From Candidatus Omnitrophota bacterium (GTDB taxonomy: Bacteria; Omnitrophota; Gorgyraeia; Zapsychrales; Fredricksoniimonadaceae), in NCBI GenBank assembly GCA_043742785.1, contig JAYTXU010000070.1:1-59874 (forward strand): a DNA stretch of 59,874 bases, in the 5' to 3' direction. Position numbers and translations under genes: made by a program. Below are positions 18,003 to 23,499 of the stretch, one piece after another (position 1 is the stretch's first letter; every line of letters begins with the position of its first letter). The notes under the pieces are model-generated. The model was not told the DNA's origin. It searched no databases and saw nothing but the letters and a program-made list of their open reading frames with translations.

Positions 18003-18500
18003 TCAATTCACTAAAAGCTTCCCAATAGCATCAAAAAGATCGACATAGAAGACCTTGTCTGAAATAGTCACTTCTACCTCCTTTGTTTTGCTTACCTGTT
18101 TTCCTCCGCCGCCGGGCAAAGGGATTACCCACAACAAAAATCGCGTGCGGTCAACCACATAATTACGCTGGGTCGTCTGAATGGCGTTTAAAAAAAGCTC
18201 CTGATGCAACTGGTCCTTCATAAAAATTCTCGCCTGCAGGACCACCACCGTATTGTTATGGCTTCTTGAAAAATATCGGCTGGCTACGATCGTCTGCAGA
18301 GCATCATCTTCTTTATCGATGGAGAATTGTTTCAAAAGCAACATTTCTATCAGGGCTTTTTGCAATTGCGCCCCTGACGCGCTAAAAACACGGACATTCT
18401 CTGGTTGTTTATCCTTCTGAATTTCTCTATAGGTATAACGAAGAGGTGAACAGCCGCTGACAACTAAGAACATTCCAAGAATCAATATTATTTTTTTCAT
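18003..18500 (-). CDS. Putative lipoprotein (possibly DUF2242-like)
   Basis: Start at MKKIIL after AGAGGAG; lipobox VSGC; family assignment from recalled similarity only. Confidence 0.65.
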   Translation of the reverse strand: MKKIILILGMFLVVSGCSPLRYTYREIQKDKQPENVRVFSASGAQLQKALIEMLLLKQFSIDKEDDALQTIVASRYFSRSHNNTVVVLQARIFMKDQLHQELFLNAIQTTQRNYVVDRTRFLLWVIPLPGGGGKQVSKTKEVEVTISDKVFYVDLFDAIGKLLVN

Positions 18501-18513
18501 TAGTTTCTCCTCT

Positions 18514-19074
18514 CTATGAATTAGCATCCACCTTAAATCCCACCCTGGTTCTTTTGTAATCATCAGTAACAGGGATCACAATTAAACGACGGATAGCTTC
18601 AAAAATAGCCTGAATCTTCTTATCATGATCTTGATATTTACCTTCTAAATCTTCAATTTTACGGGCTAAATCTTTATGTGTTATCATTAATTCTCTTAGC
18701 TTTGAAAATGTCCGCATAATTTGAATATTAACATTAATAGCACGCTCACTGTTGAGAACACTCGAGAGCATAGCTACCCCTTCTTGAGTAAAAACATTAG
18801 GCATTTTTCTAACACCCATTCTTTCTTTATTGGATATCGCAATTTGCGACATCCAATTTTCAAGATCTTGGGTTGTTAGTTGAAACATAAAATCACGAGG
18901 GAATCGTTTAATATTCCTTTTTACTTGTTCATTGAGCCTGCTCGTTTGAACACCATAAAGTTTGGCTAAATCTCTATCTAACATCACTTTCAGTCCTCGA
19001 ATAAGATAAATCTTGCTTTGAATGATCTCTACCGGTATTTCACCTGCTGATTGTTCAACAATTTGTTCTTTCAT
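18514..19074 (-). CDS. ORF6N-domain DNA-binding protein, copy 1
   Basis: IRGLKVMLDRDLAKLYGV, VKRN..RFP.DFMFQL, FTQEGVAMLSSVL, VNIQIMR. Confidence 0.9.
   Translation of the reverse strand: MKEQIVEQSAGEIPVEIIQSKIYLIRGLKVMLDRDLAKLYGVQTSRLNEQVKRNIKRFPRDFMFQLTTQDLENWMSQIAISNKERMGVRKMPNVFTQEGVAMLSSVLNSERAINVNIQIMRTFSKLRELMITHKDLARKIEDLEGKYQDHDKKIQAIFEAIRRLIVIPVTDDYKRTRVGFKVDANS
18829..18857. repeat. Intragenic palindrome, ORF6N copy 1
   Basis: ATTGGATATCGCAA-T-TTGCGACATCCAAT; 14-bp arms, 1 mismatch. Confidence 0.9.
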
Positions 19075-19117
19075 AGCTCCCCTCATAGGTTAAAATTGGT
19101 TAAAAATATTTAGAAAC

Positions 19118-19675
19118 TTATTTAGCATCCACCTTAAATCCCACCCTGGTTCTTTTGTAATCATCAGTAACAGGGATCACAATTAAACGACGGATGGCTT
19201 CAAAAATAGCCTGAATCTTCTTATCATGATCCTGATAGTTACCCTCTAAAGCTTCAATCTTACGAGCTAAGTCTTTGTGCGAAATCATTATTTCTTTTAA
19301 CTTTACAAAAACTCTCATAATTTGAATATTAACTTGAACAGCTCTTTTAGACCTAAGCACGCTTGAAAGCATCGCTACACCTTGTTCAGTAAAAACATAC
19401 GACAAATACCGTTGACCTCCTCGTCCTATTTTTGACATGCCAATTTGGCATCTCAAATAATCCTCTTCTTCTTTACTTAGTTGGAACATAAAGTCTTCTG
19501 GAAAATGATCCCTATTTCTTTTAACTGCCCTATTAAGATGACCTGTTTCAACTCCATAAAGGATCGCCAAATCACTATCCAACATAACTTTATGCCCACG
19601 AATAAAGTAAATTTTGCTTTGAATAATTTCTACTGGTAATACATCTGCTGATTTCTCAATAACTTGTTCTTTCAT
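19118..19675 (-). CDS. ORF6N-domain DNA-binding protein, copy 2
   Basis: IRGHKVMLDSDLA.LYGVET, AVKRN, FPEDFMFQL, FTEQGVAMLSSVL. Confidence 0.9.
   Translation of the reverse strand: MKEQVIEKSADVLPVEIIQSKIYFIRGHKVMLDSDLAILYGVETGHLNRAVKRNRDHFPEDFMFQLSKEEEDYLRCQIGMSKIGRGGQRYLSYVFTEQGVAMLSSVLRSKRAVQVNIQIMRVFVKLKEIMISHKDLARKIEALEGNYQDHDKKIQAIFEAIRRLIVIPVTDDYKRTRVGFKVDAK
19431..19457. repeat. Intragenic palindrome, ORF6N copy 2
   Basis: TTTGACATGCCAA-T-TTGGCATCTCAAA; 13-bp arms, 1 mismatch. Confidence 0.9.
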
Positions 19676-19718
19676 GGATCCCCTCATAGGTTAAAATTGG
19701 TTAAAAATATTTAGAAAC

Positions 19719-20267
19719 TTATTTAGCATCCACCTTAAATCCCACCCTGGTTCTTTTGTAATCATCAGTAACTGGGATCACAATAAGACGACGGATGGCT
19801 TCAAAAATAGCCTGAATTTTCTTATCATGATCCTGATAGTTGCCCTCTAAAGCTTCGATCTTACGGGCTAGGTCTTTATGAGATACCATCAATTCTTTGA
19901 TCCTGACAAAAACCCTCATAATTTGAATATTAACTTGAACAGCTCTTTTAGACTTAAGCACGCTTGAAAGCATAGCCACCCCTTGTTCAGTAAACACATA
20001 AGATAAATATTTAGAATTTTGTCCTCTTTTCAAGATGCCAAATTGGCATCTTAAAGAATCCTCTTCTTCTTTACTCAATTGAAACATAAAATCTTCTGGA
20101 AAATGATCCGCATTCCTCTTAACTGCTCTATTAAGATGACCTGTTTCAACTCCATAAAGTTCAGCCAAATCTTTATCAAACATAACCTTCTGTCCACGGA
20201 TTAAATAAATCTTGCTTTGAATAATTTCAACTGGCACTGATGATTGTTCAACGACTTGTTTTTTCAT
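19719..20267 (-). CDS. ORF6N-domain DNA-binding protein, copy 3
   Basis: IRGQKVMFDKDLAELYGVET, AVKRN, FPEDFMFQL, FTEQGVAMLSSVL. Confidence 0.9.
   Translation of the reverse strand: MKKQVVEQSSVPVEIIQSKIYLIRGQKVMFDKDLAELYGVETGHLNRAVKRNADHFPEDFMFQLSKEEEDSLRCQFGILKRGQNSKYLSYVFTEQGVAMLSSVLKSKRAVQVNIQIMRVFVRIKELMVSHKDLARKIEALEGNYQDHDKKIQAIFEAIRRLIVIPVTDDYKRTRVGFKVDAK
20029..20055. repeat. Intragenic palindrome, ORF6N copy 3
   Basis: TTCAAGATGCCAA-A-TTGGCATCTTAAA; perfect inner 10-bp arms, 12/13 overall. Confidence 0.9.
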
Positions 20268-20310
20268 TCAGTCCTCCATAGGTTTAAATTGGTTTAAAAA
20301 ATCTAAGAAC

Positions 20311-20862
20311 TTATTTATCCACCACAAAGCCTACCTTGGTTCTTTTGTAATCATCAGTAACTGGGATCACAATAAGACGACGGATGGCTTCAAAAATAGC
20401 CTGAATCTTCTTATCGTGATCTTGATAATTACCCTCTAAAGCTTCGATCTTACGGGCTAAGTCTTTATGAGATACCATCAATTCTTTGATCCTGACAAAA
20501 ACCCTCATAATTTGAATATTGACCTCTATAGCTCTGTCACTATTAAGAACGCTCGAAAGCATGGCTACACCTTGTTCTGTAAAAGCATGCGGCATCTTAC
20601 GAACGCCTCCCCAACTTGATATCGCAAAATGCGATATCAAGATTAAAAATTCATCTTTTGTTAACTGAAAACAAAAATCCTCCTTTGGAAATCTTTTGAT
20701 ATTTCTTTTTACCTGTTCATTAAGCCTAAAAGTGGGTAAGCCATAAAGAACCGCCAGATCCCTATCAAGCATAACTTTATGCCCACGAATTAAATAAATC
20801 TTGTTTTGAATGATCTCAATTGGTAAAACACCTGCTGCTTTCTCAATAACTTGTTTTTTCAT
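20311..20862 (-). CDS. ORF6N-domain DNA-binding protein, copy 4
   Basis: IRGHKVMLDRDLAVLYG, LNEQVKRNIKRFP, FTEQGVAMLSSVL; GGAGG RBS before MKKQV. Confidence 0.9.
   Translation of the reverse strand: MKKQVIEKAAGVLPIEIIQNKIYLIRGHKVMLDRDLAVLYGLPTFRLNEQVKRNIKRFPKEDFCFQLTKDEFLILISHFAISSWGGVRKMPHAFTEQGVAMLSSVLNSDRAIEVNIQIMRVFVRIKELMVSHKDLARKIEALEGNYQDHDKKIQAIFEAIRRLIVIPVTDDYKRTKVGFVVDK
20615..20641. repeat. Intragenic palindrome, ORF6N copy 4
   Basis: CTTGATATCGCA-AAA-TGCGATATCAAG; perfect 12-bp arms. Confidence 0.92.
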
Positions 20863-20903
20863 AAATTCCTCCATTGATATATTTTCTCATTAAACTTTTG
20901 GCA

Positions 20904-21953
20904 CTATCTAACCCTCTCGCCGTTTTCGTCGAATATCACCGAAAGATCATGGATTAAAGATGTTCCTACCGACTGTTTTTCTAATGGCAGCGCCAAGCGC
21001 GCCATCGCCTTTAATTTGTTTTCCCATTGGCTTTTTTGCGAATCGTGTTGTGTTGACTCCTTATGCAATTCTTCCTGCAATTGAATGCTCTTCTGGCTCT
21101 TAGTTTCAAGCTCCTTTTGCAAAATGACCAGCTGTTGGGTCAACTCCTTATTCTTTTGCTGCTCATTAAAATATTGAACCTTGCTTTGATCGAAATGTTC
21201 CTGCAACTGGGCAATCTTCTGCTCCTTACCTTCAAGCTCCTTTTGAACAATGACCAGCTGTTGGTTCAACTCCTTATTTTCTTGCTGCTCATTGGAAGAT
21301 ACTTTATTTCTTTGATCTAATAACTGCATATCCTTGGAAACAGGCAAGATGGCTTGATGTTCCACTTTTTTCCAAATAAAGTATGCTCCCATCAAAAGAG
21401 AGCTAACAAACAACAAGAGAATCAATTTAAAAATCAATCCCTTGCTCTTCCATATCCATAAAATTCCGATCGCCAATATCCATAACCCTATATCCATAAA
21501 TCTTCCCATCAATCCAAAAGGAATGCGATAAACGCCGTAGGGATTATTAAAAGCCCAGCTATACATTTCATAATGCCATGATTCCACCCATTCTTGATCT
21601 ACCTTCAGTTTCGTACACCAGAATTCTAAAGGCCCTTGATTGGCAGGAGGCGCGGGTGGACTTGATGAAACTTTTATTTCCTGGGGTTGTTCAATGGGTA
21701 TAGACTGCGGAGATGGGGAAGCTTCGTTAGGTACGATTGGTTTTGCTTCAGGAATTATTTCAACAGGCGACTTCTTGATTTCGTAAAAAGCATCACGTCC
21801 CTCTAGAGTTTTCATTAGCTGTCCCTGGGCCGCTAAAACCGCCAAACCTTTTGTGACTGCACTTCTGGAAATTTTTAAAGCATTACTTAACTGAACCGGG
21901 CTCGCCTTGCCTTGAGTCTTAATGTATTCCAGAATCTGATCATTAACTGCCAT
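20904..21953 (-). CDS. Winged-HTH / two-TM / coiled-coil protein
   Basis: QILEYIK..GKASPVQLSNALKISRSAVTKGL..L...G wHTH pattern, Pro-rich linker, two hydrophobic segments, duplicated coiled coil; ATG at 21953 follows GGAGGG. Confidence 0.7.
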   Translation of the reverse strand: MAVNDQILEYIKTQGKASPVQLSNALKISRSAVTKGLAVLAAQGQLMKTLEGRDAFYEIKKSPVEIIPEAKPIVPNEASPSPQSIPIEQPQEIKVSSSPPAPPANQGPLEFWCTKLKVDQEWVESWHYEMYSWAFNNPYGVYRIPFGLMGRFMDIGLWILAIGILWIWKSKGLIFKLILLLFVSSLLMGAYFIWKKVEHQAILPVSKDMQLLDQRNKVSSNEQQENKELNQQLVIVQKELEGKEQKIAQLQEHFDQSKVQYFNEQQKNKELTQQLVILQKELETKSQKSIQLQEELHKESTQHDSQKSQWENKLKAMARLALPLEKQSVGTSLIHDLSVIFDENGERVR

Positions 21954-21994
21954 TTTACCCTCCTTAGCCTGTTCCTTCAGGCTTAGTTTAAATT

Positions 21995-22518
21995 TACGCA
22001 ATAAATTACTGCGTATTTACTCAGTAAATACCTGAATACTCACTCCCTGAATCCATCGCTAATCTCTTAAAACACATTGATATTCAATAAGTTACAAATC
22101 TTTATCCCTATCGTTTATCTTTAGGACCAAGCGGATGTGCGTAAAACATGAATAAAATATGAATAAAATATGAGTAAAATGTGAATAAACTTCCTTTACT
22201 GAGTAAATACGCAGTAATGACCTGAGCAAATCCAAATACTCTAATAGTTGTTGATTTAAGGAATACGCGGCGGAAGGAGAAACAGTGGAAATGCGTAGAC
22301 CTACTTATTTGATTAAATATTAACAAATACTTACTTAATAGTCAATTAAATATTTCAAAATACTCACCTCCTAGATAATCGCTAATGTCCATAAACATCT
22401 TGATATTAAATAAGTTACAAGTCATTAGCCCTATCGATTATATTCATGACCCCCAGGATGTGAGTAAAACATGAGTAAAATGTAAGTACTTTTATTTTAC
22501 GCAGTAAATTACTGCGTA
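21995..22518. promoter_or_regulatory. Repeat-dense non-coding block (palindromes, 24-bp inverted repeat, 11-bp tandem repeats, about 124-bp duplication)
   Basis: Repeats read directly from the sequence (see findings); a regulatory function is inferred. Confidence 0.6.
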
Positions 22519-22552: not shown

Positions 22553-23023
22553 TTATGCAGAAACCAACGTCTTCGCATCTGCTGTCAGTCCAAGGAAGCT
22601 ACGAAGGTCAGTCATTGGTTGGATATTGATAATCACCGGCACAAAGCCAGGGGCGTCTTGAAGTTGCTCAAGCATGGCGGGGTCAAGGTGAAATTTGATC
22701 CCCCCACTGTCATCCCCGCGAAAGCGGGGATCCATGTCAGAATTACCCTTATTATGAATTCCCGCATTTCCCTGCCTGCCGGCAGGCAGGGCGGGAATTA
22801 CATCATCACCACGATCCAAAATAAAATCAAAACGGAAAGGGTTATCCGTATGAACCTTGATACTCTTTAAGATCGGCGGATTCATCGGTGGGCTTAAATG
22901 AACCATCACTCCAGGCTTCGGTAATACAAAATCCTGTGCTTGGACAAGCGGCATCGGTCCAAAGGTATTAACCAAGAACGCTATTAAGATAACTATATGA
23001 GTGCATGGGGCTCTCTGTCTCAT
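22553..23023 (-). CDS. Short secreted protein resembling the joined N- and C-termini of Omnitrophota very large proteins; may be a remnant
   Basis: Signal-like N-terminus, LPKPGVMVHLSP..PPILK.IKVH.DNPFRFDFILD and GIKFHLDPAMLEQLQ.APGFVPVIINIQP, linked only by repeat-derived peptide; family identity recalled, not searched. Confidence 0.55.
   Translation of the reverse strand: MRQRAPCTHIVILIAFLVNTFGPMPLVQAQDFVLPKPGVMVHLSPPMNPPILKSIKVHTDNPFRFDFILDRGDDVIPALPAGRQGNAGIHNKGNSDMDPRFRGDDSGGIKFHLDPAMLEQLQDAPGFVPVIINIQPMTDLRSFLGLTADAKTLVSA
22708..22802. repeat. Family C double-hairpin element with a family B palindrome (22771-22790) nested in its right loop
   Basis: TGTCATCCCCGCGAAAGCGGGGATCCA...TGAATTCCCGCATTTC[CCTGCCTGCCGGCAGGCAGG]GCGGGAATTACA. 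Confidence 0.9.
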
Positions 23024-23123: not shown

Positions 23124-23499
23124 CTAACTTTCCAATTTTATTCCTGGTATGCGGGAAAAATCTTTAGTGTTTGAGGTCATAACAGAATAATGCCAATACA
23201 GCGAGCTGGCCGCAATAAGAATATCTTCTGTGTGAATGGATAAGCCTTTTTTCTTAAGATAGGTATAAATATCAGCCGCACGCTGGGATATTTGTGGGGT
23301 TAAATCTAGTACTGTACAAAGACCTATCAATTCTTTTCGCTGGGTTATATGCTTCTGTGATTCAACCCCTCTTAAAAGTTCAAAAACAGTGATGACCGAT
23401 ATGGCTGCTTTTGCCTCCAAAAGAAGTCGTTCAACCTTGGGATCAATGATTTTGTCTTTTCCGACAAAAAAAAAGAACACAGGTATCAAGAACTGTCAC
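23124..23499 (-). pseudogene. vapC: VapC/PIN toxin frameshifted at a T9 tract
   Basis: GTG at 23499 gives MTVLDTCVL in one frame; ISVITVFELLRG, EDILIAAS and TSNTKDFSRI are in another; the 376-nt span is in frame if one T is removed. Confidence 0.75.

Follow-up and report, generated by a model that had tools for sequence, protein, structure and literature searches.

Iyer, Koonin and Aravind are said to have described ORF6N, KilA-N and Bro-N in 2002 as N-terminal domains of phage anti-repressor-type proteins; we know of no function established for ORF6N proteins. Here we analyze four co-oriented ORF6N genes, c1 to c4 in order of coordinate, that lie side by side on the minus strand at 18514-20874 of a 59,874-nt stretch of DNA (the window) from a Candidatus Omnitrophota bacterium (GenBank assembly GCA_043742785.1, contig JAYTXU010000070.1). 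We think it likely that these are intact paralogues in which ancient modules of helix and palindrome sit between flanks altered by gene conversion, and that the proteins bind as dimers to the palindrome inside their own gene.

The closest analogue of an ORF6N helix with an in-gene site appears to be BstA-aba. BstA is a prophage defense protein with a KilA-N-type helix-turn-helix (HTH)-containing N-terminal domain, and each homologue has its own specific aba element, which overlaps its own gene and acts as DNA; aba is 63 bp long, has terminal direct repeats and overlaps the gene start (bioRxiv 10.1101/2020.07.13.199331). The system resembles the array in combining an N-terminal DNA-binding domain with a short cognate element in its own locus that overlaps coding sequence. 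It differs in that BstA is prophage-borne, larger and equipped with its own C-terminal domain, whereas the ORF6N array is chromosomal and stands among housekeeping genes; and aba lies at the gene start, whereas the ORF6N element is a palindrome in mid-gene. That each homologue has its specific element is seen here by comparative sequence only (94 of 96 copies carry the palindrome, and its core tracks residues 46 and 49). ORF6N is a separate Pfam family from KilA-N, and the structural matches that would link the two types are weak: Z 4.5 to Mbp1 (APSES/KilA-N-type) and Z 5.5-5.7 to Dachshund/Ski.

A second point of contact is PDC-S05, a candidate single-gene defense system in PADLOC. Its model PDLC04856 matches c1 at residues 17-168 (E 4.4e-60) and c3 at residues 8-161 (E 3.5e-61), these being the two copies scanned, and PDLC04869 and PDLC04849 match as well. 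One PDC-S05 representative is reported to protect E. coli about 1000-fold against T7 and T5 and is described with a Virulence_RhuM domain (bioRxiv 10.1101/2024.09.26.614923). The array proteins differ from the representative so described in having no RhuM Pfam match at E<=0.01. From these profile matches, a defense role of the array is possible.

PHROG 'anti-repressor' families match the array proteins over the N-terminal 120-130 residues (E 1e-30), but the profile for phage anti-repressor-type proteins (PHROG 4792) is 268 residues long and has another C-terminal half. The short form seen in the array is also rare in viruses and plasmids (5 IMG/VR matches, 5 of 50,697 phage records and 28 of 72,556 plasmids), whereas genome contigs gave at least 601 short-form relatives among the 185,579 species genomes scanned. 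We know of no repressor partner for the short form.

Heteroimmune lambdoid repressor-operator modules and the exchange of hsdS target-recognition domains are familiar cases in which a specificity unit is kept while conserved flanks recombine freely, giving mosaic relatives. The ORF6N array differs from both in that the site is part of the gene whose protein would read it, and in that the exchange partners are tandem chromosomal paralogues with no recombinase or inversion system. pSK1 Par and RacA resemble the ORF6N proteins in joining a small N-terminal winged-HTH/MerR-like domain to a long coiled coil and in having repeated or palindromic sites near their own gene. They are weak structural matches (Z 5.1 to 8csh and Z 4.0 to 5i41, where Z below 8 may reflect a common arrangement only); there is no sequence similarity to ORF6N proteins, and no partition or chromosome-anchoring link is shown. 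A literature search, from which subscription journals were excluded, gave no description of ORF6N arrays or of the in-gene palindrome, and we could not find in print a helix-plus-own-site module in an ORF6N gene or its recognition code.

Four ORF6N genes in tandem

The array is built of units of about 600 bp, with start-to-start distances of 601, 601 and 589 bp. Its longest open reading frames (ORFs) encode 190, 189, 182 and 187 aa. All four copies match Pfam ORF6N (PF10543; E 1.8e-32 to 7.9e-36) over model positions 1-86 of 86, at 110-122.7 bits against a gathering score of 27.8, and are 69-73% identical to copy 1 in protein. NCBIfam contained no model matching the array proteins, and Tandem Repeats Finder, with its period limit of 500, gave no call for the 600-bp array. 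An earlier examination of the letters and their translations, here called the sequence-only reading, had proposed a mosaic tandem array with homogenized 3' ends and spacers. Its four ORF6N genes and unit length are borne out, and the C-terminal peptide that it quoted as near-constant is invariant in all four copies.

Conserved MKEQ or MKKQ codons at 19074, 19675, 20267 and 20862 are preceded by Shine-Dalgarno-like GAGGGG or GGAGGA and are probably, from this context, the true starts; an in-frame ATG at 19086, upstream in c1, is a less likely one. These starts leave three 43-bp spacers between the genes. Near identity, as claimed before, holds for the c2/c1 and c3/c2 spacers, which differ just in the final four bases beside the start codon; the c4/c3 spacer is a diverged form (the 89-nt repeat that holds the spacers has identities of 93% and 78%). 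No spacer of this type was found upstream of c4. As a candidate control element the spacer motif was searched genome-wide, and its exact core was found in the array only. Every copy is full-length and has its own start codon and Shine-Dalgarno-like motif, and the array contains no silent or truncated donors.

The genome, a 1.9-Mb bin that is 82% complete, holds nine ORF6N copies: the four of the array, four intact dispersed ones and one broken. The upstream regions of dispersed copies C24, C57 and C74 share two TTCCCC(A) motifs about 20-25 nt apart that are missing from the array spacers, and the C24 leader resembles the array spacer. The broken copy (contig C41, 21694-22153) has a break in its frame after the N-terminal 40 residues and keeps a well-paired palindrome of the TCGCA class. 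ORF6N genes occur in 31 of 41 related genomes, this one included; tandem pairs occur in three, none of which has a longer array. None of seven same-genus genomes had two ORF6N matches on one contig, in bins that are 74-94% complete and in which repeats often go unassembled, a result that does not amount to absence.

From the 601 or more relatives, we kept 80 loci (446 kb) spanning many phyla; 88 copies from these loci and eight from this genome make up a 96-copy set. Databases annotate the relatives just as 'ORF6N domain-containing protein', and the closest outside relative among the matches listed comes from an Omnitrophota metagenome-assembled genome (MAG; 64%). Arrays recur elsewhere, as a survey suggested by the sequence-only reading has now established: in 10 of the 80 loci at least two copies lie within 3 kb, and three-copy tandem arrays are present in a Planctomycetales MAG (L031), a Margulisiibacteriota single-cell genome (L037) and a deltaproteobacterial MAG (L049).

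Predicted recognition helix and in-gene palindrome

The AlphaFold2 model of c1, built from 89 aligned sequences, has a predicted local distance difference test score of 81.6 and a predicted template modeling score of 0.69. It contains helices at residues 33-40 and 44-53, separated by a turn, then a long helix (110-146) and a further one (152-165). Residues 45, 46, 49 and 50 are positions 2, 3, 6 and 7 of helix 44-53 and share one face. The motifs by which copies had been grouped earlier are present, HLNRAVKRN in c2 and c3, RLNEQVKRN and VRKMP in c1 and c4; the contrast between RLNEQVKRN and HLNRAVKRN is that of the predicted recognition helix. The tail is predicted as a long helix, for which a PDB sequence search gives coiled-coil look-alikes only.

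A near-perfect palindrome of 27-29 bp lies at one homologous coding position in all four array copies, 25-30 codons past the helix (helix and site are about 80 bp apart), and no two of the four are the same. Each of the four intact dispersed copies has a further version. In the 96-copy set, all but L062 and L059 have a palindrome at the homologous site (94 copies), and in 93 its arms measure 9-17 nt. Positions 2-13 from the center are paired in 78-100% of copies, positions 16-17 in 15-17%, and alternative (compensatory) pair types occur at positions 4, 5, 7, 8, 10, 11 and 13. Pairing averages 11.2 of 12 as observed and 5.4 after random synonymous re-coding, with 0.13% of shuffles reaching the observed value.

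We computed the mutual information of palindrome bases with all variable residues, setting palindrome-encoded residues apart. Positions 4 and 5 are linked to residues 46, 49 and 50 (z 23-43) and position 7 to residue 45 (z 15), position 8 tracks residue 90, and other residues not encoded by the palindrome reach z<=7 at positions 4, 5 and 7. Residues 84-89, which come directly after the palindrome, are linked to positions 10, 11 and 13 (z 9-21). The resulting code, written for the core at positions 5 and 4, pairs CG with R46/E49 (35/37 copies), CA with Q49 (31/31), TC with N46/K49 (10/13) and GC with R49 (9/9). None of the eight intact copies of this genome departs from it.

Further palindromes of the family type lie outside the homologous site. 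The 80 loci contain 18, against a chance expectation that we estimate at about one, and 11 of the 18 are 28-71 nt upstream of ORF6N starts. L062, which has no in-gene palindrome, and L018 and L047, in which the in-gene code is broken, all have an upstream palindrome of the class predicted by their helix (3 of 3). A Peribacteria MAG (L073, 3190-5562) has two ORF6N genes, and the upstream palindrome of the second fits the helix of the first, which suggests cross-regulation between paralogues. The only family-type palindrome of this genome outside ORF6N genes is at about 14389 of contig C55 (CA-N3-TG core, 11 of 12 pairs), where it adjoins or lies within a PIN-like ORF.

On this comparative evidence, the variable middle is plausibly a specificity module, a 'reading head plus cognate site'. 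For ORF6N proteins we infer DNA binding, dimerization through the tail, autoregulation and any role in defense. Each protein would have an N-terminal HTH-type DNA-binding domain and a long helical tail, which probably dimerizes it. The dimer would recognize a palindrome that its own gene contains or that closely precedes this gene, and binding would serve autoregulation or mark the carrying DNA as self. The array carries two helix classes and four different palindromes (R46/E49 with TCGCA in c1 and c4, H46/R49 with TGCCA in c2 and c3), with helix and site inherited as one block.

Instead of a protein site, the palindrome might be a recombination hotspot, a hairpin of the mRNA or a small mobile element of hairpin form; shared ancestry would then account for the covariation. 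A 13-bp hairpin would form in the mRNA, the palindrome lies in a different reading frame in C24 and L025, and covariation has thin support on the well-supported branches of the tree. We nevertheless judge this alternative unlikely. Mismatches show no sense-strand wobble bias (8 of G:U type, 13 of A:C type), so an mRNA hairpin is not favored. The palindrome sits in the middle of the mosaic block, away from its borders, and the residues that covary, 45, 46, 49 and 50, all belong to one helix, with no signal at four control residues. The three code breakers with a matching upstream palindrome also argue for a site that the helix reads.

Mosaic history of the array

The four-way DNA alignment has 42 informative sites for c1+c4|c2+c3, 20 for c1+c2|c3+c4 and 9 for the third split. 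The signal is mixed before column 156; 36 of 41 informative sites favor c1+c4|c2+c3 in columns 170-383, and 9 of 10 favor c1+c2|c3+c4 in columns 418-550, the grouping that had been noted for 3' sites. Over 63 coding informative sites the supported split switches 19 times, compared with 34.0 +/- 3.2 when shuffled, and none of 100,000 shuffles was as low. In approximately unbiased (AU) tests on the eight intact copies of this genome, the N-terminal, middle and tail trees reject each other (p 8e-6 to 0.025), values that must be held at a discount since the segment limits were picked after the data had been seen, which inflates them; the permutation test is independent of the limits. Both tests reject a single tree for the whole gene. 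The mosaic is real, and the gene segments have differing histories.

A GENECONV-style test found three significant identical tracts in the array. The tract shared by c3 and c4 (Table 1) contains RIKELMVSHK, the peptide by which these two had been linked before. Another joins the tail ends and following spacers of c2 and c3 (89 alignment columns in the test, of which 85 nt are confirmed identical), and the third lies in the c1-c2 spacer (p=1e-4). The proportion of differing synonymous sites (pS) among array copies is 0.19-0.34 in the tail (codons 136-185) and 0.40-0.72 in the N-terminal and middle segments. Compared with dispersed copy C24, tail pS is 0.71-0.75 despite a near-same tail protein (proportion of differing nonsynonymous sites, pN, about 0.10), which points to gene conversion and not to selection on the protein. 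Homogenization of tail and spacers at the DNA level is thus supported. With conflicting segment trees and low synonymous divergence confined to some segments, the array has the marks of concerted evolution, and gene conversion among tandem paralogues is an already known kind of event.

The middle modules have another history. They are synonymously saturated between classes (pS 0.67-0.72), and c1 and c4 differ in the middle block at pS 0.68 and pN 0.20. In the middle-block tree of the 96 copies, c1 is nearest to Patescibacteria, Omnitrophota and Flavobacteriales loci and c4 to a Margulisiibacteriota gene; the one sister pair in the array is c2 and c3. The likeness of c1 and c4 in the middle, which had been taken as a mark of exchange, is ancient instead. 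In the tail and N-terminus trees, c1-c4 are closest to copies of this genome. Judged by these trees, the modules are old lineages and the flanks are homogenized within the genome. Of 9 within-locus pairs in other genomes, 8 are more alike in the tail than in the middle (identities of 92% versus 69% in the single-cell genome), against a background of 52% in the tail and 60% in the middle for unrelated pairs between genomes.

The most conserved nucleotide stretches of the family (codons 25-36, 55-66, 91-105 and 109-120) bracket its variable parts, and the break zones of the array adjoin these boxes. We propose that gene conversion or unequal crossing-over, with its anchors in the conserved boxes on both sides of the module, time and again replaced leader or spacer, N-terminus and tail of one copy with those of another and so left a mosaic. 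The uniform tails would be either selected, for mixed oligomers or a shared partner, or a by-product of gene conversion. Two viral-contig genes, L091 and L093, have identities of about 90-95% in the tail and upstream and only about 55-65% in the middle (alignment estimates), and belong to different helix/palindrome classes. They show an independent module swap, and that such exchange occurs in the ORF6N family. Both, with their near-identical upstream regions and tails, come from one metagenome.

The sequence-only reading went further and likened the array to a cassette system in which recombination shuffles specificity modules on a constant tail. Of this, the differing histories stand, as does a plausible module with a helix and a covarying palindrome; the programmed system does not. 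That the array generates helix and tail combinations at appreciable frequency, like pilin or hsdS shuffling, would suit the recurrence of tandem ORF6N arrays (three-copy ones included), the conserved boxes that flank the variable block and the recent swap between L091 and L093, but we hold it to be quite improbable. There is no site-specific recombinase beside the array, nor are there silent donor cassettes at one expression locus, as there would be in a shufflon: tyrosine or serine recombinase or integrase genes number zero on the 59.9-kb contig (12 tyrosine-recombinase and 5 resolvase matches lie elsewhere in the genome), and each copy is a complete gene that has a ribosome-binding site of its own. 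Module divergence is saturated, the block borders have no inverted repeats or recombination sites, and contigs of two sequencing runs that hold the organism contain no variant joints, although contigs can drop rare forms.

Those two runs, from one sediment study, contain 94-96% of sampled words, and we compared their contigs with the array. An assembly artefact, in which alleles of one locus from several strains were joined in tandem, is very improbable, even though the genome is a short-read metagenome bin and the run contigs break at identical tracts. The unique pieces of c1-c4 are 100% identical to the window in both runs, at a depth of 6.8-12.1 against 9.0-10.2 for the flanks; strain alleles would each show a fraction of the flank depth, so collapsed alleles are disfavored. 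Given equal depth, c1-c2-c3-c4 is the only path that uses each piece once, and comparable arrays are found in the single-cell genome and in long contigs of other phyla. As regards the order of the copies, which the earlier examination wanted checked, a 237-nt contig bridges c3, the spacer and c4, and the other junctions are unbridged. In runs X3 and X4 (22-27% of sampled words), two 'joints' that would skip 1352 and 593 bases were rejected as copy-number variants; their shorter side is 21-22 nt with 90% likeness, and repeats or related organisms are their likeliest source.

Purifying selection on the protein alone, with no DNA exchange between copies, is hardly credible as the cause of the constant tail: the tail peptide is invariant over about 30 residues and its GF motif near the C-terminus is almost invariant across the family, but the synonymous contrast with C24 and the continuation of identical tracts into non-coding spacers already contradict it.

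Several points weigh against intact paralogues whose dimers bind their own in-gene site, the explanation that we prefer. Independent pairs over all branches of the best tree go in the same direction in 18/19, 19/20, 14/16 and 21/29 cases with none opposite, and four control residues show no association, but the tree behind these counts comes from a short segment and is poorly resolved; the well-supported branches give one to three independent pairs and no significance (median p 0.25-0.5). Foldseek against PDB found nothing at E<=1e-3 (best E 0.2 or worse), and no match in the VIA wide search exceeded Z 6.3, which does not suffice to assign a fold family; with fold matches this weak, what supports the HTH assignment is the model together with the motif. 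A search of the 82%-complete genome that allowed 4 mismatches found no further copies of the four array palindromes, apart from the mutual match of c2 and c3, and a palindrome present only in its own gene fits autoregulation and yields no regulon for a regulator. The upstream palindrome is of another class than the gene at L013, L073_5562 and L049_3680. The viral gene L091, with N46/K49, likewise keeps an upstream TCACA-class site, which it has in common with L093 and which fits the L093 helix only. Finally, c3/c4 is the sole junction bridged by a contig, and the order of the array is not read-verified over identical tracts.

Neighborhood and meaning

A gene for a protein of 365 aa with winged-HTH, membrane and coiled-coil segments lies directly upstream of the array (Table 1) and is probably the first gene of its transcription unit. 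It contains an internal 126-nt tandem duplication (21067-21318, 77% identical), and the intergenic region upstream of it has 4.4 tandem copies of an 11-nt unit (22142-22189). Weak homologues of the protein (31-37% identity) are encoded directly downstream of ORF6N genes at loci L098 and L101 (same-genus genome G002), in a gene order opposite to that at the array. The protein may be a functional partner of the ORF6N proteins.

On the other side, a lipoprotein gene begins 14 nt past the c1 stop. Farther neighbors include 2-oxoacid:ferredoxin oxidoreductase genes, bioB and a VapC-like gene. The last, a VapC/PIN-type toxin-like ORF at 23124-23489, is about 2.3 kb from the array and the sole nearby gene of defense type (57 bits against an NCBIfam cut-off of 140; Pfam PIN at E 5e-7). 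No defense island is evident around the array, whose neighbors are housekeeping genes, and with no integrase on the contig (window ORFs were scanned in part) there is no sign of a prophage context. An ORF of 156 aa at 22553-23023 on the minus strand has a signal-peptide-like stretch in its first 70 or so residues with about a dozen partial matches across the genome, two of them directly 3' of dispersed ORF6N copies (C24:29747-29959 and C57:3574-3744). Its middle overlaps a GC-rich repeat of REP (repetitive extragenic palindromic) type, and the opposite strand (22619-22870) reads 'IPAFAGMT'.

Table 1. Coordinates of the array, its parts and the adjoining genes in the window
Feature	Position	Strand	Basis or remark
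Array ORFs, longest frame	18514-19086, 19118-19687, 19719-20267, 20311-20874	-	ORF listing
c1, ORF6N gene, 186 aa from MKEQ start	18514..19074	-	ORF and Pfam
c2, ORF6N gene, 185 aa	19118..19675	-	ORF and Pfam
c3, ORF6N gene, 182 aa	19719..20267	-	ORF and Pfam
c4, ORF6N gene, 183 aa	20311..20862	-	ORF and Pfam
c2/c1 spacer/leader, 43 bp, Shine-Dalgarno-like GAGGGG	19075..19117	-	equals c3/c2 spacer except last 4 bases
c3/c2 spacer/leader, 43 bp	19676..19718	-	sequence comparison
c4/c3 spacer/leader, 43 bp, diverged version	20268..20310	-	sequence comparison
c1 predicted recognition helix TSRLNEQVKR, R46/E49 class	18916..18945	-	AlphaFold2 model and alignment
c2 predicted recognition helix TGHLNRAVKR, H46/R49 class	19517..19546	-	alignment
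c3 predicted recognition helix TGHLNRAVKR, H46/R49 class	20115..20144	-	alignment
c4 predicted recognition helix TFRLNEQVKR, R46/E49 class	20704..20733	-	alignment
c1 palindrome, 14-nt arms, 13/14 paired, inner core TCGCA	18829..18857	.	palindrome search
c2 palindrome, 13-nt arms, 12/13 paired, inner core TGCCA	19431..19457	.	palindrome search
c3 palindrome, 13-nt arms, 12/13 paired, inner core TGCCA	20029..20055	.	palindrome search
c4 palindrome, 12-nt arms, 12/12 paired, inner core TCGCA	20615..20641	.	palindrome search
c1 middle module block (homologous: c2 19339-19549, c3 19940-20147, c4 20529-20736)	18738..18948	-	36/41 informative sites c1+c4 vs c2+c3
c1 homogenized tail block (homologous: c2 19122-19304, c3 19723-19905, c4 20315-20494)	18521..18703	-	pS 0.19-0.34 in array
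60-nt gene-conversion tract in c3, identical to c4 20461-20520	19872..19931	-	GENECONV-style test, 20 polymorphic sites, p=1e-4
85-nt tract, c2 tail end and following spacer, identical to 19688-19772 (c3 tail end and spacer)	19087..19171	-	GENECONV-style test, p=0.006
Winged-HTH, membrane-segment, coiled-coil protein gene, 365 aa, upstream, co-oriented with array	20904..22001	-	ORF and domain search
Lipoprotein gene, downstream, co-oriented	18003..18500	-	ORF and domain search

By analogy with BstA-aba, ORF6N genes could be minimal self-labelling modules of that type, and the homogenized tails of an array could form mixed oligomers that bring different reading heads together and thereby widen the range of DNA recognized, for example that of invading elements. 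We regard this extension as speculative and rather doubtful. If it were true, the in-gene palindrome would tag the DNA that carries it as 'self', and helix and site would travel as a unit across phyla.

The array can be read as a natural experiment, in which recombination overwrote all but a block of about 210 bp that holds the predicted helix and the matching palindrome. It suggests a concrete recognition code, helix residues 46 and 49 against palindrome positions 4 and 5, and with it a likely ligand for a family that is widespread (at least 601 relatives in many phyla) and has had no known target. It would also provide a mechanistic bridge from ORF6N proteins to BstA-aba and to the PDC-S05 defense candidates.

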